Source: Octopus sinensis
Taxonomy: Eukaryota
Direction: 5' to 3'
Length of the DNA stretch: 64,000 nucleotides
Assembly (NCBI RefSeq): GCF_006345805.1
Contig: NC_042997.1
Span: 39,494,001 to 39,558,000 of the forward strand
Positions 2,378 through 55,585 of the stretch are shown here, piece by piece (within the stretch, counting starts at the first letter, position 1; the number at the start of each line of letters is the position of its first letter). The position numbers were made by a program, and so were the translations under genes. The notes beneath the pieces are model-generated. The model saw only the letters and a program-made list of their open reading frames with translations, did no database searches and was not told the DNA's origin.

Positions 2378-2584
2378 TATGTGATTCAGTTTTCAAAACT
2401 AAATTTACCTGGGAATAGAACCTCTAAGGAAAATACTCTGAGTTAATGTAAATTTTATTGAATAAGTTTAAAAGTATTTTTTTAACATTTTAAATTGAAA
2501 AGTTGTTTTTTTTTATAAAGAAAAAGATTGACTATTAACTGATAATTTGTTAATTATTCTATTTGTTTTTTTTTTTTTTGACAG

Positions 2585-2729
2585 GGTAACCAACCTGGTG
2601 CATAAGATCTCCAATTCTCCCAGGAAAGAAAGAGCTTTGAAAATTTACACCGAAGATTTAAAATCGACCAGACTTTTGCCATCTCCTGTAGTTCCCTCTG
2701 CTGCTGGTGCTGCTTCTGGGCTAGACTAG
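2585..2729 (+). CDS. Terminal coding exon of the same gene (R-VTNLVHKISNSPRKERALKIYTEDLKSTRLLPSPVVPSAAGAASGLD*)
   Basis: Strong poly-T tract plus gacAG acceptor at 2583-2584. Phase is compatible with exon 553-621. TAG stop at 2727-2729, followed by about 3 kb of AT-rich, TE-poor, 3'UTR-like sequence with AATAAA candidates (e.g. ~3852, ~4494). Confidence 0.7.
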
Positions 2730-21412: not shown

Positions 21413-21440
<28 letters not shown>

Positions 21441-21457
<17 letters not shown>

Positions 21458-21531
21458 ATGGGGGAATATTATCCCAAACTTACAGAGAAAAATTCAATTT
21501 AGAAATACTAAATCAAATTTCACAAAATATA

Positions 21532-21570
<39 letters not shown>

Positions 21571-21659
21571 TATATAATATAATAATATGGGGGAATATTA
21601 TCCCAAACTTACAGGGAAAAATTCAATTTAGAAATACTAAATCAAATTTCACAAAATAT

Positions 21660-21706
<47 letters not shown>

Positions 21707-21778
21707 ATAATAATATGGGGGAATATTATCCCAAACTTACAGGGAAAAATTCAATTTAGAAATACTAAATCAAATTCA

Positions 21779-21785
<7 letters not shown>
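21441..21785. repeat. Three tandem ~85-bp units separated by (TA)n
   Basis: ataatatgggggaatattatcccaaacttacagggaaaaattcaatttagaaatactaaatcaaatttcacaaaat x3. Confidence 0.85.
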
Positions 21786-21814
<29 letters not shown>

Positions 21815-22439: not shown

Positions 22440-23449
22440 ATATACATTCACATCCCTCTGCCCCCCCCCCCACACACATATAAAACCCATAAAATCTGGA
22501 AGTATGAGAGGGGATATGGGTAATTTCTTCTGCCTCAAGACTTTTTAGGAGATTCATATGCCTTGCAGTCTATATAAGATGTTCTTTGAAAGGAAAATGA
22601 GATACAGTATAAAAATTCAATGCAGAATGGAACTGATACTGAAATACCTGTTAGAAATCATCATCATCATCATCATTATGTTATATGTTTTTTTTTTTTT
22701 AAATTCCATTCTTGTGGTGTTAGATTTGGGTGGGTCTAGCATCCATTTATCTTTGGCAACATGATAGCTTGCATTTAGTGAGTTACTCTCACATTCCAAA
22801 TAGAGTTACTATACTTACCTGCTGCTTGAAAAATTGATTCTGCTAGACAGGTGACAATAGCATAATCATCATTATCATTTAACATCAATCTTACATGCTA
22901 GCATGGCTTGGATGATTTGACAGGATCTGAGAATCTGGAGGATTGTGTTGAGCCACAGTGTCTGTTTTGGCATGGTTTTGTTATAGTGGAATGCTCTTCT
23001 CAATACCTTTATAGAATACTCTGGGTGCTTTTTTTAGTGGTATTCATAATAATCATCATCATTGGTTGGCATTAGGAAAGGTATCCAACCCCAGCTGCAG
23101 AAGCCATGCTAAAACAGACATTGCTAAATGATGTCTCTGGACTCATTGGATTCTGTCGAACTATCCAACCCATGCCAGCATGATGGTTAGTCATTAAATG
23201 ATGTTGATGATGATGATGATATATAACATTGATTATGATGTTCTAATATAAAACAATCAATATGCTTTTTACTTGACTTTTTACATAAGTTCTATCACTA
23301 TGTTTTCATTTCCATGTATTTCATTTCTTCAGTAAAAACAATGAGTTCAATTATTTAGAAAGAGATTTTGTGTTTGAGAAAATAACTTGGTGAAATACTG
23401 AGATGAAATTTGAATAAAAACAAGGTTTCACAAGGCAAAGGTTTTCTCT

Positions 23450-23623
23450 TTCTTTTTTATTTGTTTCAGTCATTGGACTGCGGCCATGCTGGGGCACCAG
23501 ATGTAAATAAACCAACATTGACTGTCAAGTGATGGTGAGGGGCCAAACAGACATAGACACAGACAGACAGATAGACACACACACACACACATACACATGC
23601 ACTCACTCTCTCTCTCACACACA

Positions 23624-23709
<86 letters not shown>

Positions 23710-23897
23710 CACACATACACACACACACACACACGACTGACTTCCACACAGGCTCTGTTTACGAAATTCACTTGCAAGGCATTGGTTGGCTGGGGGCCAT
23801 AGTAGAAGGTACTTGCTCATGGTGGTGTGCAGTAGGACAGAACCCAAAACCCTGCAGTTGCAAAGTGAGATTCTTAACCAAACAGCCATAGCTGCAT
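23450..23897 (-). mobile_element. Diverged SINE family A with an expanded (CA/CT)n internal tract
   Basis: ttgtttcagtcattggactgcggccatgctgg 3' end and tRNA-like head at 23740-23897. Confidence 0.65.
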
Positions 23898-24222
23898 CTA
23901 CACAAATAAAGATGTACCTGGCATCAAAAACCTGTAGGGTACAATGGAATGTGACCATTGGTAATCAATTGGAGGCTCTTTTTTAACAGTTCAAAGACAA
24001 GTGAAAAATGTTTCATTACACAACTTGCTTCAATTCCATTTTCAGGCCATCTTAGTCAAGATAATATAATATTAAAATGAAATTTTGCAAAGAACAAGTA
24101 AAACATGATTTTCTTTTTGTAGCATTTGGAAATTTCAACAAAAAATTTAAGAAAAACACTAGGTTACTTTTTATATTAAGGATGATTTTACCATAAAGGC
24201 AACTATATATTTGGTATTGATC

Positions 24223-24493
24223 TGGGATCACAGATTTGAGATTTCTCACCAAGTGAAGAAAGCCAGATATTAGGACTTGGTTTCTAGGCTCTTGTCAAAG
24301 GATGGCACACAGCTTTATTCCCTGTTGAAGTTAACTGCTGTGGTTTTTTTAGCAAGAGTGGCACACTATTTCCTGTAGAAAAGACTAATATGAAAAACAA
24401 GCAATTGAAGAAAGCCATCAAGGAGACAGCCATAGTAGCTGAAACTAGTTCAAGGTGGTTGTTGTTGATGAGGGTCCATGCTAATGTGTGTTC
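24223..24493 (+). pseudogene. Decayed HERO/NeSL-like non-LTR retrotransposon, C-terminal RLE domain (continues at 39070-39097 after the array)
   Basis: WDHRFEISHQVKKARY*DLVSRLLS / KGWHTALFPVEVNCCGFFSKS...KKAIKETAIVAETSSRWLLLMR matches the recalled pattern W...E.AH..K..KY..LV...GW....FPVEVGCRGF...A.E..S.WLW..R of HERO-type RLE C-termini. One stop (24271-24273) and one frameshift (~24298). Confidence 0.7.
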
Positions 24494-27400
24494 TATAGGC
24501 ACTTCTGTCCATGCTAACGTCTGCTCTATAGGCACTTCTGTCCATGCTAACGTCTGTTCTATAGGCACTTCTGTCCATGCTAACGTCTGTTCTATAGGCA
24601 CTTCTGTCCATGCTAACGTCTGTTCTATAGGCACTTCTGTTCACGATAACGTCTGTTCTATAGGCACTTCTGTCCACGCTAACGTCTGTTCTATAGGCAC
24701 TTCTGTCCACGCTAACGTCTGTTCTATAGGCACTTCTGTCCACGCTAACGTCTGTTCTATAGGCACTTCTGTCCACGCTAACGTCTGTTCTATAGGCACT
24801 TCTGTCCACGCTAACGTCTGTTCTATAGGCACTTCTGTCCATGCTAACGTCTGTTCTATAGGCACTTCTGTCCATGCTAACGTCTGTTCTATAGGTACTT
24901 CTGTTCACGCTAACGTCTGTTCTATAGGCACTCCTGTCCACGCTAACGTCTGTTCTATAGGCACTTCTGTCCACGCTAACGTCTGTTCTATAGGCACTTC
25001 TGTCCACGCTAACGTCTGTTCTGTAGGCACTTCTGTCCACGCTAACGTCTGTTCTGTAGGCACTTCTGTCCATGCTAACGTCTGTTCTGTAGGCACTTCT
25101 GTCCATGCTAACGTCTGTTCTATAGGCACTTCTGTCCATGCTAACGTCTGTTCTATAGGCACTTCTGTCCATGCTAACGTCTGTTCTATAGGCAATTCTG
25201 TCCATGCTAACGTCTGTTCTATAGGCACTTCTGTCCATGCTAACGTCTGTTCTATAGGCACTTCTGTCCATGCTAACGTCTGTTCTATAGGCACTTCTGT
25301 CCATGCTAACGTCTGTTCTATAGGCACTTCTGCTCACGCTAATGTCTGTTCTATAGGCACTTCTGCTCACGCTAATGTCCGTTCTATAGGCACTTCTGTC
25401 CATGCTAATGTCCGTTCTATAGGCACTTCTGTCCATGCTAACGTCTGTTCTATAGGCACTTCTGTCCATGCTAACGTCTGTTCTATAGGCACTTCTGTCC
25501 ATGCTAACGTCTGTTCTATAGGCACTTCTGTCCATGCTAACGTCTGTTCTATAGGCACTTCTGTCCATGCTAACGTCTGTTCTATAGGCACTTCTGTCCA
25601 TGCTAACGTCTGTTCTATAGGCACTTCTGTCCATGCTAACGTCTGTTCTATAGGCACTTCTGTCCATGCTAACGTCTGTTCTATAGGCACTTCTGTCCAT
25701 GCTAACGTCTGTTCTATAGGCACTTCTGTCCATGCTAACGTATGTTCTATAGGCACTTCTGTCCATGCTAACGTCTGTTCTATAGGCACTTCTGCCCATG
25801 CTAACGTCTGTTCTATAGGCACTTCTGTCCATGCTAACGTCTGTTCTATAGGCACTTCTGTCCATGCTAACGTCTGTTCTATAGGCACTTCTGTCCATGC
25901 TAACGTCTGTTCTATAGGCACTTCTGTCCATGCTAACGTCTGTTCTATAGGCACTTCTGTCCATGCTAACGTCTGTCTATAGGCACTTCTGTCCATGCTA
26001 ACGTCTGTTCTATAGGCACTTCTGTCCATGCTAACGTCTGTTCTATAGGCACTTCTGTCCATGCTAACGTCTGTTCTATAGGCACTTCTGTCCATGCTAA
26101 CGTCTGTTCTATAGGCACTTCTGTCCATGCTAACGTCTGTTCTATAGGCACTTCTGCCCATGCTAACGTCTGTTCTATAGGCACTTCTGTCCATGCTAAC
26201 GTCTGTTCTATAGGTACTTCTGTCCACGCTAACGTCTGTTCTATAGGCACTTCTGTCCACGCTAACGTCTGTTCTATAGTAGCTTCTGTCCACGCTAACG
26301 TCTGTTCTATAGTCACTTCTGTCCACGCTAACGTCTGTTCTATAGGCACTTCTGTCCACGCTAACGTCTGTTCTATAGGCACTTCTGTCCATGCTAACGT
26401 CTGTTCTGTAGGCACTTCTGTCCATGCTAACGTCTGTTCTGTAGGCACTTCTGTCCATGCTAACGTCTGTTCTATAGGCACTTCTGTCCATGCTAACGTC
26501 TGTTCTATAGGCACTTCTGTCCATGCTAACGTCTGTTCTATAGGCACTTCTGTCCATGCTAACGTCTGTTCTAGAGGCACTCCATGTCCTGCTAACGTCT
26601 GTTCTATAGGCACTTCTGTCCATGCTAACGTCTGTTCTATAGGCACTTCTGTCCATGCTAACGTCTGTTCTATAGGCACTTCTGTCCATGCTAACGTCTG
26701 TTCTATAGGCACTTCTGTCCATGCTAACGTCTGTTCTATAGGCACTTCTGTCCATGCTAACGTCTGTTCTATAGGCACTTCTGTCCATGCTAACGTCTGT
26801 TCTATAGGCACTTCTGTCCATGCTAACGTCTGTTCTATAGGCACTTCTGTCCACGCTAACGTCTGTTCTATAGGCACTTCTGTCCACGCTAACGTCAGTT
26901 CTATAGGCACTTCTGGCCATGCTAACGTCTGTTCTATAGGCACTTCTGTCCATGCTAACGTCTGTTCTATAGGCACTTCTGTCCATGCTAACGTCTGTTC
27001 TATAGGCACTTCTGTCCATGCTAACGTCTGTTCTATAGGCACTTCTGTCCATGCTAACGTCTGTTCTATAGGCACTTCTGTCCATGCTAACGTCTTTTCT
27101 ATAGGCACTTGTCCATGCTAACGTCTGTTCTATAGGCACTTGTCCATGCTAACGTCTGTTCTATAGGCACTTCTGTCCACGCTAACGTCTGTTCTATAGG
27201 CACTTTTGTCCACGCTAACGTCTGTTCTATAGGCACTTTTGTCCACGCTAACGTCTGTTCTATAGGCACTTCTGTCCACGCTAACGTCTGTTCTATAGGC
27301 ACTTCTGCTCACGCTAACGTCTGTTCTATAGGCACTTCTGCTCACGCTAACGTCTGTTCTATAGGCACTTCTGCTCACGCTAACGTCTGTTCTATAGGCA

Positions 27401-30400
27401 CTTCTGCTCACGCTAACGTCTGTTCTATAGGCACTTCTGCTCACGCTAACGTCTGTTCTATAGGCACTTCTGTCCACGCTAACGTCTGTTCTATAGGCAC
27501 TTCTGTCCACGCTAACGTCTGTTCTATAGGCACTTCTGCTCACGCTAACGTCTGTTCTATAGGCACTTCTGCCCACGCTAACGTCTGTTCTATAGGCACT
27601 TCTGTCCACGCTAACGTCTGTTCTATAGGCACTTCTGTCCATGCTAACGTCTGTTCTATAGGCACTTCTGTCCATGCTAACGTCTGTTCTATAGGCACTT
27701 CTGTCCATGCTAACGTCTGTTCTATAGGCACTTCTGTCCATGCTAACGTCTGTTCTATAGGCACTTCTGTCCATGCTAACGTCTGTTCTATAGGCACTTC
27801 TGTCCATGCTAACGTCTGTTCTATAGGCACTTCTGTCCATGCTAACGTCTGTTCTATAGGCACTTCTGTCCACGCTAACGTCTGTTCTATAGGCACTTCT
27901 GTCCACGCTAACGTCTGTTCTATAGGCACTTCTGTCCACGCTAACGTCTGTTCTATAGGCACTTCTGTCCACGCTAACGTCTGTTCTATAGGCACTTCTG
28001 TCCACGCTAACGTCTGTTCTATAGGCACTTCTGTCCACGCTGACGTCTGTTCTATAGGCACTTCTGGCCATGCTAACGTCTGTTCTATAGGCACTTCTGT
28101 CCATGCTAACGTCTGTTCTATAGGCACTTCTGTCCATGCTAACGTCTGTTCTATAGGCACTTCTGTCCATGCTAACGTCTGTTCTATAGGCACTTCTGTC
28201 CGTGCTGACGTCTGTTCTATAGGCACTTCTGTCCATGCTAACGTCTTTTCTATAGGCACTTGTCCATGCTAACGTCTGTTCTATAGGCACTTGTCCATGC
28301 AAACGTCTGTTCTATAGGCACTTCTGTCCACGCTAACGTCTGTTCTATAGGCACTTCTGTCCACGCTAACGTCTGTTCTATAGGCACTTCTGTCCACGCT
28401 AACGTCTGTTCTATAGGCACTTCTGTCCACGCTAACGTCTGTTCTATAGGCACTTCTGCTAACGCTAACGTCTGTTCTATAGGCACTTCTGCTCACGCTA
28501 ACGTCTGTTCTATAGGCAATTCTGCTCACGCTAACGTCTGTTTTATAGGCACATCTGCTCACGCTAACGTCTGTTCTATAGGCACTTCTGTCCACGCTAA
28601 CGTCTGTTCTATAGGCACTTCTGCTCACGCTAACGTCTGTTCTATAGGCACTTCTGCTCACGCTAACGTCTGTTCTATAGGCACTTCTGCTCACGCTAAC
28701 GTCTGTTCTATAGGCACTTCTGCTCACGCTAACGTTTGTTCTATAGGCACTTCTGTCCACGCTAACGTTTGTTCTATAGGCACTTCTGTCCACGCTAACG
28801 TCTGTTCTATAGGCACTTCTGTCCACGCTAACGTCTGTTCTATAGGCACTTCTGTCCACGCTAACGTCTGTTCTATAGGCACTTCTGTCCACGATAACGT
28901 CTGTTCTATAGGCACTTCTGTCCACGCTAACGTCTGTTCTATAGGCACTTCTGTCCACGCTAACGTCTGTTCTATAGGCACTTCTGTCCACGCTAACGTC
29001 TGTTCTATAGGCAATTCTGTCCACGCTAACGTCTGTTCTATAGGCACTTCTGTCCACGCTAACGTCTGTTCTATAGGCACTTCTGTCCACGCTAACGTCT
29101 GTTCTATAGGCACTTCTGTCCACGCTAACGTCTGTTTAATAGGCACTTCTGTCCACGCTAACGTCTGTTCTATAGGCACTTCTGTCCATGCTAACGTCTG
29201 TTCTATAGGCACTTCTGTCCATGCTAACGTCTGTTCTATAGGCACTTCTGTCCATGCTAACGTCTGTTAGATAGGCACTTCTGTCCATGCTAACGTCTGT
29301 TCTATAGGCACTTCTGTCCATGCTAACGTCTGTTCTATAGGCACTTCTGTCCATGCTAACGTCTGTTCTATAGGCACTTCTGACCATGCTAACGTCTGTT
29401 CTATAGGCACTTCTGTCCATGCTAACGTCTGTTCTATAGGCACTTCTGTCCATGCTAACGTCTGTTCTATAGGCACTTCTGTCCATGCTAACGTCTGTTC
29501 TATAGGCACCTCTGTCCATGCTAACGTCTGTTCTATAGGCACTTCTGTCCATGCTAACGTCTGTTCTATAGGCACTTCTGTCCATGCTAACGTCTGTTCT
29601 ATAGGCATTTCTGTCCATGCTAACGTCTGGTCTATAGGCACTTCTGTCCACGCTAACGTCTGTTCTATAGGCACTTCTGTCCACGCTAACGTCTGTTCTA
29701 TAGGCACTTCTGTCCATGCTAACGTCTATTCTATAGGCACTTCTGTCCATGCTAACGTCTGTTCTATAGGCACTTCTGTCCATGCTAACGTCTTTTCGAT
29801 AGGCACTTGTCCATGCTAACGTCTGTTCTATAGGCACTTGTCCATGCTAACGTCTGTTATAGGCACTTCTGTCCACGCTAACGTCTGTTCTATAGGCACT
29901 TCTGTCCACGCTAACGTCTGTTCTATAGGCACTTCTGTCCACGCTAACGTCTGTTCTATAGGCACTTCTGTCCACGCTAACGTGTTCTATAGGCACTTTG
30001 CTGACGCTAACGTCTGTTCTATAGGCACTTCTGCTGACGCTAACGTTGTTCTATAGGCACTTCTGCTCACGCTAACGTCTGTTCTATAGGCACTTCTGCT
30101 CACGCTAACGTCTGTTCTATAGGCACTTCTGCTCACGCTAACGTCTGTTCTATAGGCACTTCTGTCCACGCTTACGTCTGTTCTATAGGCACTTCTGTCC
30201 ACGCTCGTCTGTTCTATAGGCACTTCTGCTCACGCTAACGTCTGTTCTATAGGCACTTGTGCCCACGCTAACGTCTGTTCTATAGCACTTCTGTCCACGC
30301 TAACGTCTGTTCTATAGCACTTTGTCCACGCTAACGTCTGTTCTATAGGCACTTCTGTCCACGCTAACGTCTGTTCTATAGGCACTTCTGTCCACGCTAA

Positions 30401-33400
30401 CGTCTGTTCTATAGGCACTTCTGTCCGCGCTAACGTCTGTTCTATAGCACTTCTGTCCACGCTAACGCCTTTTCTATTAGGCACTTCTGTCCACGCTACG
30501 TCTGTTCTCTATATGCACTTCTGTCCATGCTAACGTTGTTCTATAGGCACTTCTGTCCATGCTAACGTCTGTTCTATAGGCACTTCTGTCCATGCTAACG
30601 TCTGTTCTATAGGCACTTCTGTCCATGCTAACGTCTGTTCTTAGGCACTTCTGTCCATGCTAACATCTGTTCTATAGGCACTTCTGTCCATGCTAACGTC
30701 TGTTCTATAGGCACTTTGTCCCTGTACCGGTCTGTTCTATAGGCACTTCTGTCCATGCTAACGTCTGTTCTTAGGCACTTCTGTCCATGCTAACGTCTGT
30801 TCTATAGGCACTTCTGTCCATGCTAACGTCTGTTCTATAGGCACTTCTGTCCATGCTAACGTCTGTTCTATAGGCACTTCTGTCCATGCTAACGTCTGTC
30901 TATAGGCACTTCTGTCCATGCTAACGTCTGTTCTATAGGCACTTCTGTCCACGCTAACGTCTGTTCTATAGGCACTTCTGTCCACGCTAACGTCTGTTCT
31001 ATAGGTACTTCTGTCCACGCTAACGTCTGTTCTATAGGCACTTCTGTCCACGCTAACGTCTGTTCTATAGGCACTTCTATCCACGCTAACGTCTGTTCTA
31101 TAGGCGCTTCTGTCCACGCTAACGTCTGTTCTATAGGCACTTCTGTCCACGCTGACGTCTGTTCTATAGGCACTTCTGGCCATGCTAACGTCTGTTCTAT
31201 AGGCACTTCTGTCCATGCTAACGTCTGTTCTATAGGCACTTCTGTCCATGCTAACGTCTGTTCTATATGCACTTCTGTCCATGCTAACGTCTGTTCTATA
31301 GGCACTTCTGTCCATAACGTCTTTTCTATAGGCACTTCTGTCCATGCTAACGTCTTTTCTATAGGCACTTGTCCATGCTAACGTCTGTTCTATAGGCACT
31401 TGTCCATGCTAACGTCTGTTCTATAGGCACTTGTCCATGCTAACGTCTGTTCTATAGGCACTTCTGTCCACGCTAACGTCTGTTCTATAGGCACTTCTGT
31501 CCACGCTAACGTCTGTTCTATAGGCACTTCTGTCCACGCTAACGTCTGTTCTATAGGCACTTCTGTCCACGCTAACGTCTGTTCTATAGCACTTCTGCTC
31601 ACGCTAACGTCTTTTCTATAGGCACTTCTGCTCCGCTAACGTCTGTCCTATAGGCACTTCTGCTCACGCTAACGTCTGTTCTATAGGCACTTCTGCTCAC
31701 GCTAACGTCTGTTCTATAGGCACTTCTGCTCACGCTAACGTCTGTTCTATAGCACTTCTGTCCACGCTAACGTCTGTTCTATAGGCAACTTCTGTCCACG
31801 CTGACGTCTGTTCTATAGGCACTTCTGCTCACGCTAACGTCTGTTCTATAGGCACTTCTGCCCACGCTAACGTCTGTCTATAGGCACTTCTGTCCACGCT
31901 AACGTCTGTTCTATAGGCACTTCTGTCCACGCTAACGTCTGTTCTATAGGCACTTCTGTCCACGCTAACGTCTGTTCTATAGGCACTTCTGTCCACGCTA
32001 ACGTCTGTTCTATAGGCAATTCTGTCCACGCTAACGTCTGTTCTATAGGCACTTCTGTCCACGCTAACGTCTGTTTAATAGGCACTTCTGTCCATGCTAA
32101 CGTCTGTTCTATAGGCACTTCTGTCCATGTTAACGTCTGTTCTATAGGCACTTCTGTCCATGCTAACGTCTGTTCTATAGGCACTTCTGTCCATGCTAAC
32201 GTCTGTTCTATAGGCACTTCTGTTCATGCTAATGTCTGTTCTATAGGCACTTCTGTCCATGCTAACGTCTGTTCTATAGGCACTTCTGTCCATGCTAACG
32301 TCTTTTCTATAGGCACTTCTGTCCATGCTAACGTCTGTTCTATAGGCACTTCTGTCCATGCTAACGTCTGTTCTATAGGCACTTCTGTCCATGCTAACGT
32401 CTGTTCTATAGGCACTTCTGTCCATGCTAACGTCTGTTCTATAGGCACCTCTGTCCATGCTAACGTCTGTTCTATAGGCACTTCTGTCCATGCTAACGTC
32501 TTTTCTATAGGCACTTCTGTCCATGCTAACGTCTGTTCTATAGGCATTTCTGTCCATGCTAACGTCTGTTCTATAGGCACTTCTGTCCATGCTAACGTCT
32601 GTTCTATAGGCACTTCTGTCCATGCTAACGTCTGTTCTATAGGCACTTCTGTCCATGCTAACGTCTGTTCTATAGGCACTTCTGTCCATGCTAACGTCTG
32701 TTCTATAGGCACTTCTGTCCATGCTAACGTCTGTTCTATAGGCACTTCTGTCCACGCTAACGTCTGTTCTATAGGCACTTCTGTCCGCGCTAACGTCTGT
32801 TCTATAGGCACTTCTGTCCACGCTAACGTCTGTTCTATAGGCACTTCTGTCCACGCTAACGTCTGTTCTATAGGCACTTCTGTCCACGCTAACGTCTGTT
32901 CTATAGGCACTTCTGTCCACGCTGACGTCTGTTCTATAGGCACTTCTGCCATGCTAACGTCTGTTCTATAGGCACTTCTGTCCATGCTAACGTCTGTTCT
33001 ATAGGCACTTCTGTCCATGCTAACGTCTGTTCTATAGGCACTTCTGTCCATGCTAACGTCTGTTCTATAGGCACTTCTGTCCATGCTAACGTCTGTTCTA
33101 TAGGCACTTCTGTCCACGCTAACGTCTGTTCTATAGGTACTTCTGTCCGCGCTAACGTCCTGTTCTATAGGCACTTCTGTCCACGCTAACGTCTGTTCTA
33201 TAGGCACTTCTGTCCACGCTAACGTCTGTTCTATAGGCACTTCTGTCCACGCTAACGTCTGTTCTATAGGCACTTCTGCCACGCTAACGTCTGTTTAATA
33301 GGCACTTCTGTCCATGCTAACGTCTGTTCTATAGGCACTTCTGTCCATGTTAACGTCTGTTCTATAGGCACTTCTGTCCATGCTAACGTCTGTTCTATAG

Positions 33401-36400
33401 GCACTTCTGTCCATGCTAACGTCTGTTCTATAGGCACTTCTGTCATGCTAATGTCTGTTCTATAGGCACTTCTGTCCATGCTAACGTCTGTTCTATAGGC
33501 ACTTCTGTCCATGCTAACGTCTTTTCTATAGGCACTTCTGTCCATGCTAACGTCTGTTCTATAGGCACTTCTGTCCATGCTAACGTCTGTTCTATAGGCA
33601 CTTCTGTCCATGCTAACGTCTGTTCTATAGGCACTTCTGTCCATGCTAACGTCTGTTCTATAGGCACCTCTGTCCATGCTAACGTCTGTTCTATAGGCAC
33701 TTCTGTCCATGCTAACGTCTGTTCTATAGGCACTTCTGTCCATGCTAACGTCTGTTCTATAGGCATTTCTGTCCATGCTAACGTCTGTTCTATAGGCACT
33801 TCTGTCCATGCTAACGTCTGTTCTATAGGCACTTCTGTCCATGCTAACGTCTGTTCTATAGGCACTTCTGTCCATGCTAACGTCTGTTCTATAGGCACTT
33901 CTGTCCATGCTAACGTCTGTTCTATAGGCACTTCTGTCCATGCTAACGTCTGTTCTATAGGCACTTCTGTCCACGCTAACGTCTGTTCTATAGGTACTTC
34001 TGTCCGCGCTCGCGCTAACGTCTGTTCTATAGCACTTCTGTCCACGCTAACGTCTGTTCTATAGGCACTTCTGTCCACGCTAACGTCTGTTCTATAGGCA
34101 CTTCTGTCCACGCTAACGTCTGTTCTATAGGCACTTCTGTCCACGCTGACGTCTGTTCTATAGGAACTTCTGGCCATGCTAACGTCTGTTCTATAGGCAC
34201 TTCTGTCCATGCTAACGTCTGTTCTATAGGCACTTCTGTCCATGCTAACGTCTGTTCTATAGGCACTTCTGTCCATGCTAACGTCTGTTCTATAGGCACT
34301 TCTGTCCATGCTAACGTCTGTTCTATAGGCACTTCTGTCCACGCTAACGTCTGTTCTATAGGTACTTCTGTCCGCGCTAACGTCTGTTCTATAGGCACTT
34401 CTGTCCACGCTAACGTCTGTTCTATAGGCACTTCTGTCCACGCTAACGTCTGTTCTATAGGCACTTCTGTCCACGCTAACGTCTGTTCTATAGGCACTTC
34501 TGTCCACGCTGACGTCTGTTCTATAGGCACTTCTGGCCATGCTAACGTCTGTTCTATAGGCACTTCTGTCCATGCTAACGTCTGTTCTATAGGCATTTCT
34601 GTCCATGCTAACGTCTGTTCTATAGGCACTTCTGTCCATGCTAACGTCTGTTCTATAGGCACTTCTGGCCATGCTAACGTCTGTTCTATAGGCACTTCTG
34701 TCCATGCTAACGTCTTTTTGATAGGCACTTGTCCATGCTAACGTCTGTTCTATAGGCACTTGTCCATGCTAACGTCTGTTCTATAGGCACTTCTGTCCAC
34801 GCTAACGTCTGTTCTATAGGCACTTCTGTCCACGCTAACGTCTGTTCTATAGGCACTTCTGTCCACGCTAACGTCTGTTCTATAGGCACTTCTGTCCACG
34901 CTAACGTCTGTTCTATAGGCACTTCTGCTGACGCTAACGTCTGTTCTATAGGCACTTCTGCTGACGCTAACGTCTGTTCTATAGGCACTTCTGCTCACGC
35001 TAACGTCTGTTCTATAGGCACTTCTGTCCACGCTAACGTCTGTTCTATAGGCACTTCTGCTCACGCTAACGTCTGTTCTATAGGCACTTCTGTCCACGCT
35101 AACGTCTGTTCTATAGGCACTTCTGCTCACGCTAACGTCTGTTCTATAGGCACTTCTGCTCACGCTAACGTCTGTTCTATAGGCACTTCTGCTCACGCTA
35201 ACGTCTGTTCTATAGGCACTTCTGCTCACGCTAACGTCTGTTCTATTGGCACTTCTGTCCACGCTAACGTCTGTTCTATAGGCACTTCTGCTCACGCTAA
35301 CGTCTGTTCTATAGGCACTTCTGCTCACGCTAACGTCTGTTCTATAGGCACTTCTGCCCACGCTAACGTCTGTTCTATAGGCACTTCTGTCCACGCTAAC
35401 GTCTGTTCTATAGGCACTTCTGTCCACGCTTATGTCTGTTCTATAGGCACTTCTGTCCACGCTAACGTCTGTTCTATAGGCACTTCTGTCCACGCTAACG
35501 TCTGTTCTATAGGCAATTCTGTCCACGCTAACGTCTGTTCTATAGGCACTTCTGTCCACGCTAACGTCTGTTCTATAGGCACTTCTGTCCACGCTAACGT
35601 CTGTTCTATAGGCACTTCTGTCCACGCTAACGTCTGTTCTATAGGCACTTCTGTCCACGCTAACGTCTGTTCTATAGGCACTTCTGTCCACGCTAACGTC
35701 TGTTTAATAGGCACTTCTGTCCATGCTAACGTCTGTTCTATAGGCACTTCTGTCCATGTTAACGTCTGTTCTATAGGCACTTCTGTCCATGTAACGTCTG
35801 TTCTATAGGCACTTCTGTCCATGCTAACGTCTGTTCTATAGGCACTTCTGTTCATGCTAATGTCTGTTCTATAGGCACTTCTGTCCATGCTAACGTCTGT
35901 TCTATAGGCACTTCTGTCCATGCTAACGTCTTTTCTATAGGCACTTCTGTCCATGCTAACGTCTGTTCTATAGGCACTTCTGTCCATGCTAACGTCTGTT
36001 CTATAGGCACTTCTGTCCATGCTAACGTCTGTTCTATAGGCACTTCTGTCCATGCTAACGTCTGTTCTATAGGCACCTCTGTCCATGCTAACGTCTGTTC
36101 TATAGGCACTTCTGTCCATGCTAACGTCTGTTCTATAGGCACTTCTGTCCATGCTAACGTCTGTTCTATAGGCATTTCTGTCCATGCTAACGTCTGTTCT
36201 ATAGGCACTTCTGTCCATGCTAACGTCTGTTCTATAGGCACTTCTGTCCATGCTAACGTCTGTTCTATAGGCACTTCTGTCCATGCTAACGTCTGTTCTA
36301 TAGGCACTTCTGTCCATGCTAACGTCTGTTCTATAGGCACTTCTGTCCATGCTAACGTCTGTTCTATAGGCACTTCTGTCCATGCTAACGTCTGTTCTAT

Positions 36401-39069
36401 AGACACTTCTGTCCATGCTAATGTCTGTTCTATAGGCACTTCTGTTCGCGCTAACTTCTGTTCTATAGGCACTTCTGTCCACGCTAACGTCTGTTCTATA
36501 GGCACTTCCGTCCACGCTAACGTCTGTTCTATAGGTACTTCTGTCCACGCCACGCTAACGTCTGTTCTATAGGCACTTCTGTCCACGCTAACGTCTGTTC
36601 TATAGGCACTTCTATCCACGCTAACGTCTGTTCTATAGGCACTTCTGTCCACGCTAACGTCTGTTCTATAGGCACTTCTGTCCACGCTGACGTCTGTTCT
36701 ATAGGCACTTCTGGCCATGCTAACGTCTGTTCTATAGGCACTTCTGTCCATGCTAACGTCTGTTCTATAGGCACTTCTGTCCATGCTAACGTCTGTTCTA
36801 TAGGCACTTCTGTCCATGCTAACGTCTGTTCTATAGGCACTTCTGTCCATGCTAACGTCTGTTCTATAGGCACTTCTGTCCATGCTAACGTCTGTTCTAT
36901 AGACACTTCTGTCCATGCTAATGTCTGTTCTATAGGCACTTCTGTTCGCGCTAACTTCTGTTCTATAGGCACTTCTGTCCACGCTAACGTCTGTTCTATA
37001 GGCACTTCCGTCCACGCTAACGTCTGTTCTATAGGTACTTCTGTCCACGCTAACGTCTGTTCTATAGGCACTTCTGTCCACGCTAACGTCTGTTCTATAG
37101 GCACTTCTATCCACGCTAACGTCTGTTCTATAGCACTTCTGTCCACGCTAACGTCTTTTCTATAGGCACTTCTGTCCACGCTGACGTCTGTTCTATAGGC
37201 ACTTCTGGCCATGCTAACGTCTGTTCTATAGGCACTTCTGTCCATGCTAACGTCTGTTCTATAGGCACTTCTGTCCATGCTAACGTCTGTTCTATAGGCA
37301 CTTCTGTCCATGCTAACGTCTGTTCTATAGGCACTTCTGTCCATGCTAACGTCTGTTCTATAGGCACTTCTGTCCATGCTAACGTCTTTTCTATAGGCAC
37401 TTGTCCATGCTAACGTCTGTTCTATAGGCACTTGTCCATGCTAACGTCTGTTCTATAGGCACTTCTGTCCACGCTAACGTCTGTTCTATAGGCACTTCTG
37501 TCCACGCTAACGTCTGTTCTATAGGCACTTCTGTCCACGCTAACGTCTGTTCTATAGGCACTTCTGTCCACGCTAACGTCTGTTCTATAGGCACTTCTGC
37601 TCACGCTAACGTCTGTTCTATAGGCACTTCTGCTCACGCTAACGTCTGTTCTATAGGCACTTCTGCTCACGCTAACGTCTGTTCTATAGGCACTTGTGCC
37701 CACGCTAACGTCTGTTCTATAGGCACTTCTGTCCACGCTAATGTCTGTTCTATAGGCACTTCTGTCCACGCTAACGTCTGTTCTATAGGCACTTCTGTCC
37801 ACGCTAACGTCTGTTCTATAGGCACTTCTGTCCACGCTAACGTCTGTTCTATAGGCACTTCTGTCCGCGCTAACGTCTGTTCTATAGGCACTTCTGTCCA
37901 CGCTAACGTCTGTTCTATAGGCACTTCTGTCCACGCTAACGTCTGTTCTATAGGCACTTCTGTCCATGCTAACGTCTGTTCTATAGGCACTTCTGTCCAT
38001 GCTAACGTCTGTTCTATAGGCACTTCTGTCCATGCTAACGTCTGTTCTATAGGCACTTCTGTCCACGCTAACGTCTGTTCTATAGGCACTTCTGTCCACG
38101 CTAACGTCTGTTCTATAGGCACTTCTGTCCACGCTAACGTCTGTTCTATAGGCACTTCTGTCCACGCTAACGTCTGTTCTATAGGCACTTCTGTCCACGC
38201 TAACGTCTGTTTAATAGGCACTTCTGTCCATGCTAACGTCTGTTCTATAGGCACTTCTGTCCATGTTAACGTCTGTTCTATAGGCACTTCTGTCCATGCT
38301 AACGTCTGTTCTATAGGCACTTCTGTCCATGCTAACGTCTGTTCTATAGGCACTTCTGTTCATGCTAATGTCTGTTCTATAGGCACTTCTGTCCATGCTA
38401 ACGTCTGTTCTATAGGCACTTCTGTCCATGCTAACGTCTTTTCTATAGGCACTTCTGTCCATGCTAACGTCTGTTCTATAGGCACTTCTGTCCATGCTAA
38501 CGTCTGTTCTATAGGCACTTCTGTCCATGCTAACGTCTGTTCTATAGGCACTTCTGTCCATGCTAACGTCTGTTCTATAGGCACCTCTGTCCATGCTAAC
38601 GTCTGTTCTATAGGCACTTCTGTCCATGCTAACGTCTGTTCTATAGGCACTTCTGTCCATGCTAACGTCTGTTCTATAGGCATTCTGTCCATGCTAACGT
38701 CTGTTCTATAGGCACTTCTGTCCATGCTAACGTCTGTTCTATAGGCACTTCTGTCCATGCTAACGTCTGTTCTATAGGCACTTCTGTTTATGCTAACGTC
38801 TGTTCTATAGGCACTTCTGTCCATGCTAACGTCTGTTCTATAGGCACTTCTGTCCATGCTAACGTCTGTTCTATAGGCACTTCTGTCCATGCTAACGTCT
38901 GTTCTATAGGCACTTCTGTCCATGCTAATGTCTGTTCTATAGACACTTCTGTCCATGCTAATGTCTGTTCTATAGGCACTTCTGTTCGCGCTAACTTCTG
39001 TTCTATAGGCACTTCTGTCCATGCTAACGTCTGTTCTATAGGCACTTCCGTCCATGCTAATGTCTGTTC
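24474..39069. repeat. 33-bp tandem satellite/minisatellite array, about 440 copies, 14.6 kb
   Basis: Unit GTCCAYGCTAACGTCTGTTCTATAGGCACTTCT read directly. Recurrent variant units define higher-order blocks. Confidence 0.98.
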
Positions 39070-39257
39070 ACTGCCCAACTCAGGTGAAGCATACTGACTA
39101 AGAAGCAAAATACTTGTGACACTGATGCACTTACTTGTAAATATTGCAAAAAGCTTAGTACCAGAAGAGCCTGCAATATTATAAATTAGCTCCTGCAGTT
39201 TGTGCATGGGGCAAAGCATCTCTGGTGTTTATTTCACTTTATTTCTCCTTTAATATG

Positions 39258-39459
39258 AGGCGCAGGAGTGGCTGTGTGGTAAGTAGCTTGTTTACCAACC
39301 ACATGTTTCCGGGTTCAGTCCCACTGCGTGGCACCTTGGGCAAGTGTCTTCTACTATAGCCTCGGGTCGACCAAAGCCTTGTGAGTGGATTTGGTACACG
39401 GAAACTGAAAGAAGCCTGTCGTATATATATGTGTGTGTGTATATATATATGTGTGTGTA

Positions 39460-39502
<43 letters not shown>

Positions 39503-39716
39503 TTGTGTTTCTGTGTTTGTCCCCCCAACGTCATTTGACAACCGATGCTGGTGCATTTATGTCCCTGTAACTTAGCGGTTGGCAAAAGAGCCCGTTAGAA
39601 TAAGTACTAGGCTTACAAAGAATAAGTCCTGTGGTCGATTTGCTTGACTAAAGGTGGTGCTCCAGCATTGCCACAGTCAAATGACTGAAACAAGTAAAAG
39701 TGTAAAAGTGTAAAGT
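39258..39716 (+). mobile_element. SINE family A, full length
   Basis: Near-identical to 12013-12419. Confidence 0.85.
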
Positions 39717-41709
39717 GTGTATAGTGTATTATTTGCATAAAGATTAGAGAGATGAACTAAGTGATCTCAGAGGTCATTCTGGTTTGTCTTAAACATGTGA
39801 ATTCATTCTATTGAGGCTAATTCTACCAATTATCCTCCTCAGATAATAAATACTGAGATCATTTAATTACATAAAAAAGATAATCTCACTTATCATCTCA
39901 TGGTGCACCCTGTCTAGTTTCAGTGGACAAAGAGGAGATAACCACTCTGAAATGTCTTGGTAGGTGGTGCTGAGAGCTGATTTTGTTGTATTTACACCAA
40001 TTGTCTTCAGTAAGAAATCGTTTTCATAACAAAACACTGTGAATGGCTTTCTTATGGGTTTGAATATGCCCCGAGCATATTTGAACCAGTATTTAATCAA
40101 CTATATTATTTTTTTTAGAGTATAATCAATAAATAGTCTTATCAGCCTTTTTAAAAGAAGCTAATATGAATATAATTCCACATATGGATATAATTAATAT
40201 TTTTATTGGCTGTGACTTATACAATGTAATTATATATTTGACCGAATATATAGACACTAGGGTTAGAAAATTGTCAATTATAAGTTAAATTATTATATCA
40301 TTTATACACAAAAGGGAGTAATTTATTTGATGTTTTATCAGTCAAGCTCTCTCACAACAACTGACTGATCTTTTTTATTACCACTCATTCAATGTTTAGG
40401 CCTTTCAATACATAATGTAATTACAACATTAGCAATTATTATGTTATTAGAAATGCTGGAAAATAGAAAAAATAGAAAAATAGAAAAATATAGAAAAATA
40501 GAAAAAAGCCCCTGTAATAACGCAAAATTTAAAGCTGAATAATCATAAATGTAACTGAATTTTTAAAATATTCATATCTCAAAGCATTTGTTTTCCAACA
40601 ATAACAACAACAACAACTACATTCTGTAATTAACAACATATTTAATTGATCACAGTTTAATGGATTCTATTGAAAAACTGTCATTTTGGGCCTTTTAAAA
40701 GCACTACAAAAGAGGAAGATGCCTTCTCTAAAAATATTTCAATGAGCATAACTATAGATGCTAGTCAATATTATACATTGGTGAGCTGGCCAGAAAATTT
40801 ACATAACAGTCCTTGTAATGTTTAAAAATTGTTTGAATGTGACGTATTGTAGTTTTAGATTTAAATGAAGGGCTTCCTTTTATGACAGTAAAATTTGTGA
40901 AGTTTATCATGACAGGCATGTAATTCTCAATTAAGCAACAATAAATTCATGCAGACGAAATGTAAATTAAAAGGGTGTAGGAAAATCCATTTGTCATCTT
41001 GTGTGCTCTTGTATAACTGTTGCTTACTTAATTTCTGCCAATTTCTGTGAACGAAATATAGTTTGAGCATTATACATTTTATTTTATACATGCTATCAAA
41101 TAGCATTTTGTTTTTTTCGAAAACATTTTTCAATTTTTATAAAAAATAGTCCATTAGCAAATATTATTTTGCTATAGTATATATTATGAGTTATAGCTAC
41201 CTTACATACCTGTGTATAGATATATATATCATTCTTAATTACAGCTTTTTATATTTCAACAATAAACTACTTAATTTGTATTCAGGTTTACGAAAATTAT
41301 ATAAATATTTTCTTTAAGCATTTGTGCGCTTCTATTTTTATGTAAGTGTGCGTGTGTATATGCATGTGTGTGTATGTATATATATAAATATATATGTATA
41401 TATAAAAATTCAGGATTCAAGTAAATCAGGTCCTTAATTAGTAAAGCACCAAGGTTGGCCAGTCAAATTGCTATTGCGTACAAACAATATCTGAGGAACA
41501 AATATGTACTTACCAAAGTAAACACGCATTTATATTCCAGTTGTCTGTACAATCACAAATGGCTGACTGAATATACTGAGTCTCACGGCTGTACATCGGT
41601 ACAAACACTGCACCAATTGTACTGCACTCAAAAGACTCCAATTCCATGTGAACTGCAGGTACCAAGTAAGGTGAATAATAAACAACTAACAACAGATGGA
41701 TTGTGGTTT

Positions 41710-42618: not shown

Positions 42619-45600
42619 TTAGTCAAATCTTTTGTTGCCTTTATTTATACTATCACGTAAGTCTGGTTCTGAATGAAAAGTATGCATTTTACCATTTTCT
42701 TCCTCAGCTGCTTCTTCCGAAGCGGATTTTTGTAATTGCTTCAGTTTGTCAATACGCTTTCGATCCGGTTCAAAAGAAGCAAAAAGTTCATGAAAACTAT
42801 GACATCTTTCAGCATGATCATTGACTTCGTTTTCAGCAACTTTTTCAAATGATATAGGACTGTCATTAGCATTGACAAATTCCCTTGCGGATGATATACT
42901 CCAGCGACTTCTACTTTTATTTGATGAAGCTGGCGATGACTTTTCTCTTTGCTTTTCATTATTAGAAGATTCATTTGGAGTTTCTCTACCTTGTTCATCT
43001 CTCACGTTATCATCAGACGAAGAGGGGCACTTCTCAGAGCTTTGTGACCGTTGTCTAGGTATGGGTAAAGGAGGTTTTGAAGCAGTGGAACTATCTTCTG
43101 TAGCTAAATTTTCATCAGAGAGTAATGGCTGAGGACTCTCGTTTTCTTGCATCATCATTTGTTGAGCTATTACTATTTTTTGTCTTGCTTTCGCTTCATG
43201 TCGTTGTTTTACATTTCGTGGAGTCATAACCTTAGAAGATGATTGACTTTTTGGAGAAGATTTTGAGCTCTGTGAATCATCAGAAAACTTATTTCCTTGT
43301 TCTTCACTAATTTCACTGATTGGTCGTCTCTCATGTCTCGACCTGGTCCTAACTTTACGATGACGATCTTCATCACTTGAGCTGAAAAGATCCAACATTT
43401 TGGCTATACTCTTTGAAACTGGTCGTTTTTTCTGTTGTACCATTTCAGCCGAACTGTCACTTGAACATGATTGTTCTTGCCTTAATTGTTGCTGGAAGTT
43501 CTGTTTTGAAATATTTCCATTTTCCAGAATTTCTTTGTTTCCATTACTGCTCTGGGATTGGCTACTAGAAGTAGTGTGTTTTATATCAAAATCAGGTGGT
43601 GTTGACTTTCTGTGATTCCTGTCGTCATCTCGTCCTGATTTACGATGTAGACTAGAAGATCGTGGCGGAGGTTTGGGTCGAGGAGTACCATTAATCTGTC
43701 TTGAACTACCATCTGAAGTGTCAGATCGTGCGGAAGATTTTGACCGTGATCCTTTTTCTACTGTTATTGAGGACAAATATACTCTTGGACCATCATTACC
43801 TTCTTTTCCACTATTTCTACTCTGGTGGAATTTCTTACTTTCATGGTTCATTTCATTTGCTAGTGACCTCCTTTGGCGTCTTGTTCTTGCCCGCCGTGTA
43901 GGAACATCAGAAGTAGACAATACTGAATCTCCTGATGCATCTTCAGTTTTGATTAAAGGTGATTCAGTAACTGAAGGAGAATTTGATGTCTGAGATTCAG
44001 TTTTTACTGGGTATTTGCTACCAATATCTTTCACTGGAACTTGCATTAATTCTCGGTATCTTTGACTAGTGGTTAATCCATGGTCGGATGCTGACAAGTA
44101 GCGCATGTCAGAATGAAATGAGTCTGAACTGACATGTCCAGCTGTATTATCATACAGCTGGGAAAATGAAGAAGATAATCTAAAACAATGGCTTTCTTGG
44201 CTTGAATACGGAGAAGAAAAATTGCTTGGTTTGTTGCAGTCCAATAAGGTTTCATTGCCGATATTAAGTTGGGTGTAAATTTTTTCCAATTCATTAAGCG
44301 CTTCACTAAGTTTAGCTTTCCTGTTTACAAAATGTTCCGTACCAGGTTTTTTGCTGCTTGAAGATTTAACATCAGCTGAAAGCATTGCACTCGTTGCAGG
44401 AGAGAATTTCTTGAGAGTGTTGAGAATTCTGTCAAGATTTGATTCATCTGCTTTGAGTATCTTTGATTTAATTTCTGAAAGCTTATCTTCGACTTGACTT
44501 GCAAGAACTTTAAGTTCCTCTATATTTTCTTCTGGTTGAGCAGGTGTGTAGGTAGTTGGCTTTTCACTGTCTCTAAAAGCAAACATAACATTATTATTTC
44601 CTTCCTGGATATTCTTAATTAGAATGGCTAAATCATCACCAGATGGGGAACGTTCCACCAATCCTGTGTTGATGAGTTTCTCTTTCAGCACGGAGGGATC
44701 TAGTTGATAGTTACCATTGACAACATTCTCATACTGTTTCTCTCCCAGTTTAGTCATAGACTGGTACATCACATTTCCATGGTTGCCTTCTTGAAGTTGT
44801 AAAAGATTTTGTTGGGAAGAAAACTCAGGACGTTCTGCAGAGGGACCGCTACTACAAGCAGCCTTTAACATTTGAGAATGAACTTCTAATTGATCTCCAT
44901 GGTAAGACCCTGAATGATAAGACAGGGGCCTTTTTGGTGAACTTGCTTTGTGAGACATGTCCACATGGCTGCCAAATATCTTTCTTTGACTATTTGACAT
45001 TCTGTTACCAAGGACTGGCTGTAGATCCAAAAGAACTTCATCTAATGCATTCATGTTAGCAATCTTGTTTGAAGATTTGAGACTTGAAGTTGAATATGGT
45101 TTCGATTGAGGTTTATTATCAGCATTAGATGCTGGAAAAGAAGGTAAGGAAAAAGGTTTTATATGCTGAGTAGATGCTGCATCCATTTGACAAGAAGTAA
45201 ATGCTTTTGTAGAATCAATTTCAGTTGAGTTCTTTCTTTCTGAAGGAATTTCTTTCATAAGATGATCAAAGTTTGTTAATTCCTCAATTTCTTTCCAAAA
45301 AGGGTCTTCAGAAAAGGGGATTGTTTCTAGAGTTCTGGCTGTAACTCGTTCAATACTAACTGGTCCTTGATGACTGTCCATTTGAGGTGACCATATCTCT
45401 GAATCTTTGAGTTTTTCTTGCATTCCACCAATCAAATTTTTCCAGTTACCATGTTCTGCATTTCTTCTGTTTGATATCATTTGACTAATGCTATGGTCAG
45501 ATGATATATCACTTTTCCTTCTGAGGAAATTTCCAGCTGGTATGTTGGTATTGTTTATATCATGAGGATACAGTACAGTTTTCTTCTCATTTGCTTTCAA

Positions 45601-48528: not shown

Positions 48529-48944
48529 CTGAAATTATATAAAAAAAGTAATACTTAGAGAAAATGACTAAAAGTGAAACAAATCATATATATCTTTCAA
48601 TTAAAAAAGAATTACAAAAATATAACATTTGAAAACATAATTCTTGAAAGTATTTTAAGTCGCATGCAATCTTGAGATCATGGCTGTTGGAAAATGATTA
48701 ATGTGGTGTATCTAAAATTATCACTTTTGATCAAATTATAAAGAATTCAACTGTATATTTCCTGTCGTAGTATTTGCACAGAATATGCAACATTACTTCT
48801 TTCTAACAAATTAAACATGTCTGTGTGATTAAGAAATTTCCCTATTACAGCCCTGGGTTGATCAGTGCCTTGTGGATGAATCTGGTAGATGGAAACTGAT
48901 GTATGTTATTGTCATTGTCGTTGTTATTGTTGTTGTTGGTGCTG

Positions 48945-55047: not shown

Positions 55048-55585
55048 ATCATCATCATTGTTTAACGTCCGCTTTCCATGCTAGCATGGGTTGGATGATT
55101 TGACTGAGGTCTGGCGAACCAGATGGCTGCACCAGACTCCTATCTGATCTGGCAGAGTTTCTAAAGCTGGATGCCCTTCCTAACGCAAACCACTCCAAGA
55201 GTGTAGTGGGTGCTTTTACATGACTCCGGTACAAGGACCAGTCAGATGGTACTGGCAGCGGCCACACTCAAATGGTACTTTTTATGTGTCACCTGCACAG
55301 GAGCCAGGCCAACGGCACTGGCAATGACCTCACTCGAAAGTTTTTTTGTGTGCCACCAGTACAAGTGCCAGTAAGGTGACACAGGTAACGATCACGCTTG
55401 AATGGTGCTTTTTACGTGCCATCAGAATGGAAGCCAGTTTGCTGCACTGGCAACGATCACGCTTGGACGGTGCTCTTAGTGCTCCACTAGCACAGATGCC
55501 AGTCATCGAATTTGATTTCGATTTCACTTGCCTCAACAGGTCTTTGCAAGCAGAGTTTAGTGTCTAATGAAGGAAAGGTATGCAC
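55048..55585 (-). mobile_element. RTE LINE 3' UTR fragment with a few diverged ~62-bp repeats
   Basis: catcatcattgtttaacgtccgctttccatgctagcatgggttgga is near-identical to the 3' end at 61733. Confidence 0.75.

Follow-up and report, generated by a model that had tools for sequence, protein, structure and literature searches.

The window analysed here is a stretch of 64,000 nucleotides from Octopus sinensis (contig NC_042997.1, positions 39,494,001 to 39,558,000 of the forward strand) containing 0 N, and its main feature is a 33-bp tandem repeat lying within the remains of a non-LTR retrotransposon (one that lacks long terminal repeats, LTRs) of the restriction-like endonuclease (RLE) type. The repeat occupies positions 24474-39069 (plus strand) as one array of 14,596 bp, for which Tandem Repeats Finder gives a period of 33, 443.6 copies and 96% matches. 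Its optimal parse consists of 443 units, in agreement with the roughly 440-fold amplification inside the element reported in a preliminary description of this DNA, and a terminal partial unit with 20 of the 33 bases (39050-39069, plus strand). The units are 33 bp long in 398 cases, 32 bp in 20, 31 bp in 16, 34 bp in five, 30 bp in two and 38 bp in two; their identity to the commonest unit averages 96.4%, their pairwise difference 5.6%, and the unit has a GC content of 45-48%. A 20-mer that opens the unit is found at both ends of the array (24474-24493 and 39050-39069), as had been noticed before, but the version present at the ends has T at unit position 12, a base found in just 14 of the 443 units and likely to be the ancestral state preserved at the array edges.

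The evidence supports the view that the two flanks of the array are the C-terminus and the 3' end of one old, 5'-truncated RLE non-LTR retrotransposon. The piece of this element spans about 24205-39238 (the preliminary description had placed it at 24223-39097) and is a 3' fragment of ~480 bp once the array is set aside. The left flank (24205-24473, plus strand), recognised by tblastn and by genomic paralogues, is a decayed part of the C-terminal open reading frame (ORF) that begins just past the PD..E motif and runs through KKARY, which occupies the place of the KxxKY motif, to RWLLLMR; the frame is broken by an internal stop and a frameshift near 24270-24288. The right flank (39070-39238, plus strand), recognised by paralogous places and by loci that keep both flanks, comprises the 3' untranslated region (UTR) of the same copy down to its 3' end; at 39144 there is a gap of 17 bp relative to the family. 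In tblastn comparisons with full-length proteins carrying reverse transcriptase (RT), CCHC and RLE regions, the last ~98 residues align to 24205-24506 (E down to about 7e-16), and the window retains just the last ~90 codons and the 3' UTR of the element. The first 33 bases of the array (unit 1, 24474-24506, plus strand) correspond in position to the final 11 codons of the element ORF, their translation VHANVCSIGTS being aligned to the last 11 residues of the full-length relatives.

Related copies are abundant in the genome. At the DNA level, all of the 40 scored places match the left flank (best 40 of 131 candidates), 39 of them being paralogues at 68-89%, and the right flank has 39 other places at 70-94% (best 40 of 222 candidates scored). 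The translated left flank gives 126 matches among 150 scored of 695 candidates, scattered over many contigs, and 80 of these 126 places were added to the sample of loci. Both anchors occur in order at 99 of 122 paralogue loci, a count from which seven duplicates, the loci of the window itself and L041-L061 had been excluded. The left flank differs from the paralogue majority by 23.6% over 229 columns and the right flank by 22.2% over 162 columns; this 22-24% compares with a median of 18-19% for 51 paralogues. On a rough clock in which a distance of 0.2 corresponds to 56 million years (PMC13282606; this and the other articles given by PMC number are cited for the excerpts of them that were available), the family would be some tens of millions of years old.

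The affiliation of the family was established with a profile of 13 copies (A1), which was required because the single window fragment matched none of the 20 protein database candidates scored; Pfam likewise returned no family for the 69-residue fragment. Profile A1 retrieved 36 proteins among 8,000 scored, many of them with a reverse transcriptase domain, and had 0 matches against PDB sequences. A search of representatives yielded 1,441 proteins, and among those stored none is the orthologous product, the best identity being 52%. The CCHC knuckle and the RPD motif are present in all 13 relatives inspected and the C-terminal KxxKY in nine of the 13; the best match of the full-length relative P0064 is to R2 structures (E 4e-22), and the paralogues L067, L007, L012 and L017 extend back into the RT/linker region. 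Elements of the RLE type are marked by one ORF with reverse transcriptase, CCHC knuckle, C-terminal PD-(D/E) endonuclease and KxxKY (PMC5678591). These marks of the R2 superfamily are carried by the family, not by the truncated window copy. The identification of the flanks as an RLE-element C-terminus, proposed from the sequence beforehand, is thus upheld by both the profile search and tblastn, the translations then quoted are present in the sequence, and the expected contiguity of the two flanks is borne out by the 99 loci with both anchors.

Elements of the HERO clade have no fixed target sequence, while those of the NeSL clade insert into spliced-leader or other fixed small-RNA targets. The relatives of the family have one ORF, RT, CCHC knuckle, RPD..E and KxxKY, and in 12 of 51 paralogues with the exact 3'-end motif unrelated sequences follow, which indicates that there is no fixed target; these motifs resemble those of HERO. 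Assignment to the NeSL clade was rejected, the 3' flanks being unrelated and no Rfam match at gathering score being found in 23000-41000. As HERO elements have been reported in Octopus (PMC13282606; PMC10294476) and the family lacks a fixed target, it is likely to belong to the HERO clade. Visual inspection of the element ends showed no target-site duplication. A common repeat resembling short interspersed elements lies at 39258-39480, about 20 bp past the 3' end of the element, and has six more matches in the window.

The paralogues reveal what stood at the place of the array. Between the two anchors the gap is 50 bp in 35 of the 99 paralogues and 49-51 bp in 51 of them, most of the others being shorter by private deletions, whereas collapsing the array to the 20-mer leaves a gap of 24 bp. 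The end of the family ORF, WNPSVGED followed by the stop, falls inside this gap (as read in L010; other relatives end in WNPSAGEG and stop), from which it follows that unit 1 covers the last 11 codons, that the stop has been lost and that the right flank is 3' UTR. The array therefore stands in place of ~46 bp holding the last 11 codons and the stop.

The source of the unit was sought by scoring it against a profile of the 35 paralogues with the 50-bp gap. The clearest element-derived part, colinear with the family, is formed by unit positions 18-28 (24491-24501, plus strand), 11 bases scoring 10.9 bits (P 5e-5; 1 of 20,000 random draws reached this value), which correspond to the last three bases of the 20-mer and the first eight of the 13-mer that completes the unit. 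Positions 1-5 have a weak colinear match (P 0.006), and positions 29-33 have no match in place. When one deletion after position 28 is allowed, the best fit of the 9-14 bases that follow is at an offset of 7, whichever of three lengths is taken (P 0.001, 0.009 and 0.03, the lengths having been picked after seeing the data), so positions 29-33 together with positions 1-9 of the next unit (24502-24515, plus strand) are probably element-derived too. Such a 7-bp deletion would have removed the family stop codon and brought two imperfect GTCC..CT repeats to a distance of 33 bp. In this way about 25 of the 33 unit bases can be traced to the family and 8-12 have no source, which supports a seed at least partly derived from the element; of the retroelement-derived seed amplified in place that had been proposed, this part stands. 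According to the criterion of Haber and Louis, the seed of a minisatellite lies between direct repeats of 5-10 bp placed one unit apart. Here an imperfect repeat of 4-9 bp would fit after the proposed 7-bp deletion, but one more deletion at the right end is required, which must be assumed because only the last two bases of the partial unit fit the family sequence ahead of the right anchor. An origin of positions 1-17 as an inverted or direct templated copy from within the element was also tried and rejected, since 51, 61 and 105 of 150 shuffles scored equally.

The array is layered internally. Variants shared per pair of units fall from 0.59 at lag 1 to about 0.24 at lags 8-10, and two modules of rare variants, arranged as X X Y X X Y Y X Y X Y, build a higher-order structure at 26915-38700 (plus strand). 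Module X (six times) consists of T>G at position 2, then a 2-bp deletion and then a run of CT variants; module Y (five times) carries five single markers. Local alignment at the level of units scores 343, 277 and 250, compared with 64 and 75 for two controls with shuffled blocks, the blocks differ by 0.5-3.7%, and the modules are absent from the first ~53 units. Growth was likely stepwise, through many rounds of slippage or unequal exchange and not in one burst. A regular higher-order period, as one rolling-circle burst would leave, was discarded, the best autocorrelation being 0.36 against a shuffle maximum of 0.32, with weak, scattered peaks; blocks of irregular arrangement give a better fit. 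Because the array is layered and probably grew stepwise, its uniformity alone provides no date, and the uniformity of the units, from which a recent amplification had been deduced, is weak evidence for it; comparison between organisms dates the array better.

The repeat is restricted to this place in the 2.7-Gb assembly, where an exact 23-mer of the unit has 333 matches, 333 of 333 inside the window. With two mismatches allowed, the 20-mer gives 421 forward and 14 reverse matches, 418 of the 435 inside the window, and the 17 outside compare with 15 for a backwards control pattern. The repeat is single-locus in this assembly, although unassembled arrays may exist elsewhere, and the genome search that had been recommended for the 33-mer thus disclosed one locus and no old dispersed satellite. 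Transposon-derived minisatellites are delimited by units of at least 20 bp, GC of at least 40%, at least two copies, at least 95% likeness and an overlap with a transposon of at least one period or, alternatively, a unit at least 70% similar to a transposon consensus, satellite units being longer than 100 bp in the same usage (PMC3389668). The octopus array, with 33 bp, GC 45-48%, 443 copies, 96% likeness and a position inside one element copy, falls within the first definition; its unit is less than 70% similar to the consensus when compared without gaps, about 25 of 33 bases being placeable on the family with one 7-bp deletion. A satellite DNA family would have several loci or a very large size and a unit above 100 bp, and here there are one locus, 14.6 kb and 33 bp. 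By unit size and single locus the array, previously called a satellite, is therefore a minisatellite rather than a satellite family, and it is a new, single-locus case of a known kind, the transposon-derived minisatellite.

Sequencing runs of other organisms, designated A to E, provide the time frame. Part of the left stretch was found in 20 runs, with shares of 0.05-0.07 in other runs of E; no RNA run was among those listed, which has no bearing on expression. Contigs of the unit occur in bulk in runs of A (X1), B (X3, X4), C (X7) and D (X8), and the left flank differs from the window by 2 of 569 letters in B, 6 of 539 in C and 1 of 530 in D (0.2-1.1%). Organism E diverges from the window by ~7%, which on a rough clock would represent about 10 million years. 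In its run X14, a 978-letter contig aligns from unique DNA over 23900-24501 with 43 other letters and 6 gaps, and reaches 28 bases into unit 1, past 24467-24473 where the listed paralogue contigs end. The first 28 bases of the array thus occur once in the orthologue of E; the contig departs at the point where the family continues into the bases missing from the window and then goes on for 203 letters that do not fit the array. The depth in X14 is zero at 24516-24540 (80% likeness), and both X14 and X17 (organism E, two studies) have zero depth on units at 88% likeness. Organism E probably carries an unexpanded allele, to judge from the contig match, and the expansion is likely younger than the split from E. 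Concerning the array-free orthologue that had been asked for, E holds one 28-base piece of the seed and no units, the rest of the allele being inferred.

Taken together, these data make it quite probable that the minisatellite arose in place from the ORF-end sequence of a dead RLE fragment and grew by repeated unequal exchange or slippage. In the history proposed, about 12 bases of the last codons would have been replaced before the split from E, so that a short motif (GTCC..CT) came to open the seed and to recur, imperfectly and in direct orientation, just behind the stop codon. The lineage leading to organisms A-D would then have undergone a 7-bp deletion that took out the stop and put the short repeats 33 bp apart, and misalignment between them may have made the first duplicate. 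Slippage or conversion of single units and duplications of blocks of about 15-90 units would have led to 443 copies, and a deletion of about 19 bp through a 2-base microhomology would have trimmed the right end to the partial unit; the relative order of the 7-bp deletion, the first duplication and this trimming is free in the scheme. This course follows the published model of initiation by short direct repeats followed by slippage, conversion or unequal crossing-over (PMC6947457; PMC3389668). At least three small lesions are needed besides the amplification, and the earlier qualification of the locus as a clean snapshot was overstated. The contribution of the retrotransposon is proposed to be its sequence and not its enzymes, and the array is likely without function.

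Several observations weigh against this origin in place after the split from E. The 203 letters that follow the seed in E are unseen, and the empty allele is inferred rather than read. No long orthologous piece of the right flank was found in the contigs of X14, X17 and X4, which are filtered and no proof of absence, and none of the contigs listed for B, C and D bridges the left junction, their units being placed here by analogy. The pairwise difference within the array (5.6%) is close to that between A and E (~7%). Regarding the seed, nothing in the family corresponds to unit positions 6-17 (-31 bits), the whole unit aligned without gaps is no better than random DNA (P 0.08) and, searched over all positions, pieces of 9, 12 and 16 bases are all within the 95th percentile of shuffled units, so that the matches to the element rest on their position. 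Finally, the contigs of X1 at the right junction (39040-39255) have depths of 434 and 355 compared with 20-85 for the other listed contigs, and leave the window at 39144-39152, at its 17-bp gap relative to the family. Another allele, a collapsed repeat or an uneven library could underlie this depth, which an origin in place does not explain; contig depth is not a copy number, and summed depth was not used as such.

Some of these points nourish other explanations. The duplication could predate the split from E, which would then keep a precursor of one or two units (for example a 40-bp unit with the seven bases) or have lost the array, and only the bulk expansion, or nothing, would be younger than the split. 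Unit 1 opens with nine bases that are similar to what the family has behind the stop and that also occur in E, as if unit 1 were perhaps already duplicated, and both the diversity of the array in relation to the distance between A and E and the unseen remainder of the E contig agree with an old event; E nevertheless has a single piece of 28 bp, neither of its two runs, from two studies, shows any more unit-like depth, and its contig continues for 203 letters where a uniform array would presumably break it, which makes an older duplication unlikely. There is a slimmer chance that the assembled length or layout is wrong, the array being collapsed or inflated, or its end and right flank being repeated in the animal. 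Thirty singleton units of odd length do resemble indel errors of long reads, and the right-junction contigs of X1, about 4-5 times deeper than the others listed, differ from the window at 39144; against such an error, the window has no N, nested shared variants are not the invention of an assembler, and no near-identical second copy of the right flank or of the DNA beyond it appeared among 40 scored candidates per search. A wrong layout would in any case alter the size of the array and not its origin.

The remaining possibilities concern the nature of the unit. That a foreign repeat or the unit of an old satellite was inserted and amplified, its likeness to the element being due to chance, would account for the 8-12 bases without a source and for the non-significant ungapped score of the whole unit, and is very hard to reconcile with the lack of any other locus, with an 11-base match exactly at the colinear place and with the first 28 bases of the seed in an E orthologue without array. 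Even less credit can be given to the exact model of the preliminary description, in which the 20-mer is native, a foreign 13-mer joined it and the ORF end reappears as RWLLLMR-VHANVCS-LPNSGEAY once the array is taken out. The 20-mer bounds both ends of the array and the frame happens to continue to a stop; yet the rejoining is an operation on paper only, given the paralogue gap of 49-51 bp in 51 of 99 loci compared with 24 bp, and LPNSGEAY is 3' UTR read through by chance, as the family ORF ends within the gap. Moreover, the 20-mer as a whole misfits the family (P 0.19) and is found in none of the 40 scored paralogous places, and the best match to the element lies mostly in the 13-mer, while positions 6-17 match nothing. 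Equally negligible is a coding repeat, that is, an element remnant in frame with (VHANVCSIGTS)n and retained for its protein. In its favour, an open frame of 564 residues extends from 24288 across the first 45 units and just one of the 398 33-bp units has a stop in that frame; but three of the six unit frames are open, as is not unusual over 11 codons, a single base change can create a stop in this frame in one way only (TGT to TGA), the same frameshifting 2-bp deletion is common to 13 units in six blocks, and the upstream frame of the element is broken.

Among known systems, mouse Ms6-hm has a 5-bp unit in an LTR element and forms a long single-locus array in a retroelement remnant. The octopus array is likewise long, single-locus and within a retroelement remnant, and its unit is 33 bp with higher-order blocks. 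The origin of Ms6-hm from MaLR is named in PMC6947457. In humans, at least 7,276 arrays (23% of mini- and satellites) are transposon-derived (Ahmed and Liang 2012, PMC3389668), and they resemble the present case in a unit of 20-100 bp, high identity, location inside a transposon copy and presumed growth by local duplication; the first model of that work predicts an incomplete terminal unit, which the octopus array has. In contrast to the human cases, the octopus host is an RLE element and not Alu or L1, the unit is a mosaic that matches the element partly, and the array is long, with 443 copies and 14.6 kb at one locus. Several satellites derive from ORF2 or the 3' ends of long interspersed elements (LINEs), such as chicken HinfI (CR1), Phodopus PROsat and the cetacean common satellite (L1) and Drosophila 18HT (HeT-A/TART), and resemble the octopus array in that the repeat unit stems from a non-LTR retrotransposon's ORF end or 3' region; these satellites are described as families, whereas the octopus array is a single-locus 33-bp repeat with both flanks of the parent copy in place (PMC9659126).

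The birth of tandem repeats from transposons, including LINE ORF ends and 3' UTRs, is common and well documented (PMC3389668; PMC9659126; PMC6947457). The formation of the first duplicate of a minisatellite is poorly documented, and current models explain only 6% of the human cases (PMC3389668). At this locus both flanks, about a hundred copies of the family and a probable pre-expansion orthologue are available, and since the array is also long and single-locus it is a study case somewhat above the average. The array would likely be a variable marker among the close organisms A-D. In the literature covered (open-access articles in PMC, and bioRxiv) no paper was found that deals with this locus or describes an array of this sort within a HERO element of octopus; the supplements of octopus repeat papers may include the family or the repeat.

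Other copies of the family also carry tandem repeats near the ORF end or in the 3' UTR, as observed in a survey of 119 oriented loci chosen by these flanks. L032 (1268-1520; G000:C26) has an independent array of four 64-bp units with 82% matches, taken from the ORF-end/3' UTR region; its units start at the same family position as the array of the window, and the variant TATAGGCA is shared. L082 and L117 contain a 268-bp tandem duplication across the ORF end and, being 96.6% alike over 618 bp, probably represent one event. Inside the gap of L074 there is an insertion of 21 bp that includes a short duplicated word, and the 3' UTRs of L091, L094 and L137 contain dimers of 13-14 bp that score at the threshold. 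These two or three events among some 118 copies hint at a duplication-prone site. As a tentative and rather doubtful extension, the boundary between ORF end and 3' UTR of this family could be a recurring birthplace of tandem repeats, of which the present locus would keep the whole birth record, with a single-copy seed in a sister lineage, lesions that fixed the length of the unit and growth in blocks from one to 443 copies in ~10 million years; if so, L032 and L082/L117 would be stalled early stages.

On the minus strand there is an open frame of 1,971 residues (42619-48534), nearly a whole protein in one exon. It is 95% identical to an uncharacterised protein of Octopus bimaculoides (LOC106879036) and ends at the same residue, from which it follows that the array lies about 3.5 kb past the stop codon, outside the coding exon. 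Molluscs share blocks of conservation in this protein, two gastropod relatives bear the label 'HP domain-containing' at their source, and Pfam returned no family for the ORF. At 61898-62739 there is a GC-rich array with a 62-bp unit, 13.3 copies and an open frame of 263 residues, and at 55343-55474 a similar-looking dimer of 65 bp; similar translations are found in L011, L013, L026 and L037, with Pfam matches below the cut-off, and the 62-bp array probably belongs to a dispersed octopus element as its internal tandem repeat. At 21416-21811 a unit of 129 bp, itself containing a (TA)n run, is repeated 3.1 times at 96%. Next to a paralogous copy of the retrotransposon in L027, an open frame (2390-3185) encodes several C2H2 zinc fingers in a row. 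Finally, a dispersed repeat at 39865-40090 has many copies at 71-82%; several are paired in inverted orientation at distances of a few hundred bases, a pattern suggestive of terminal inverted repeats.

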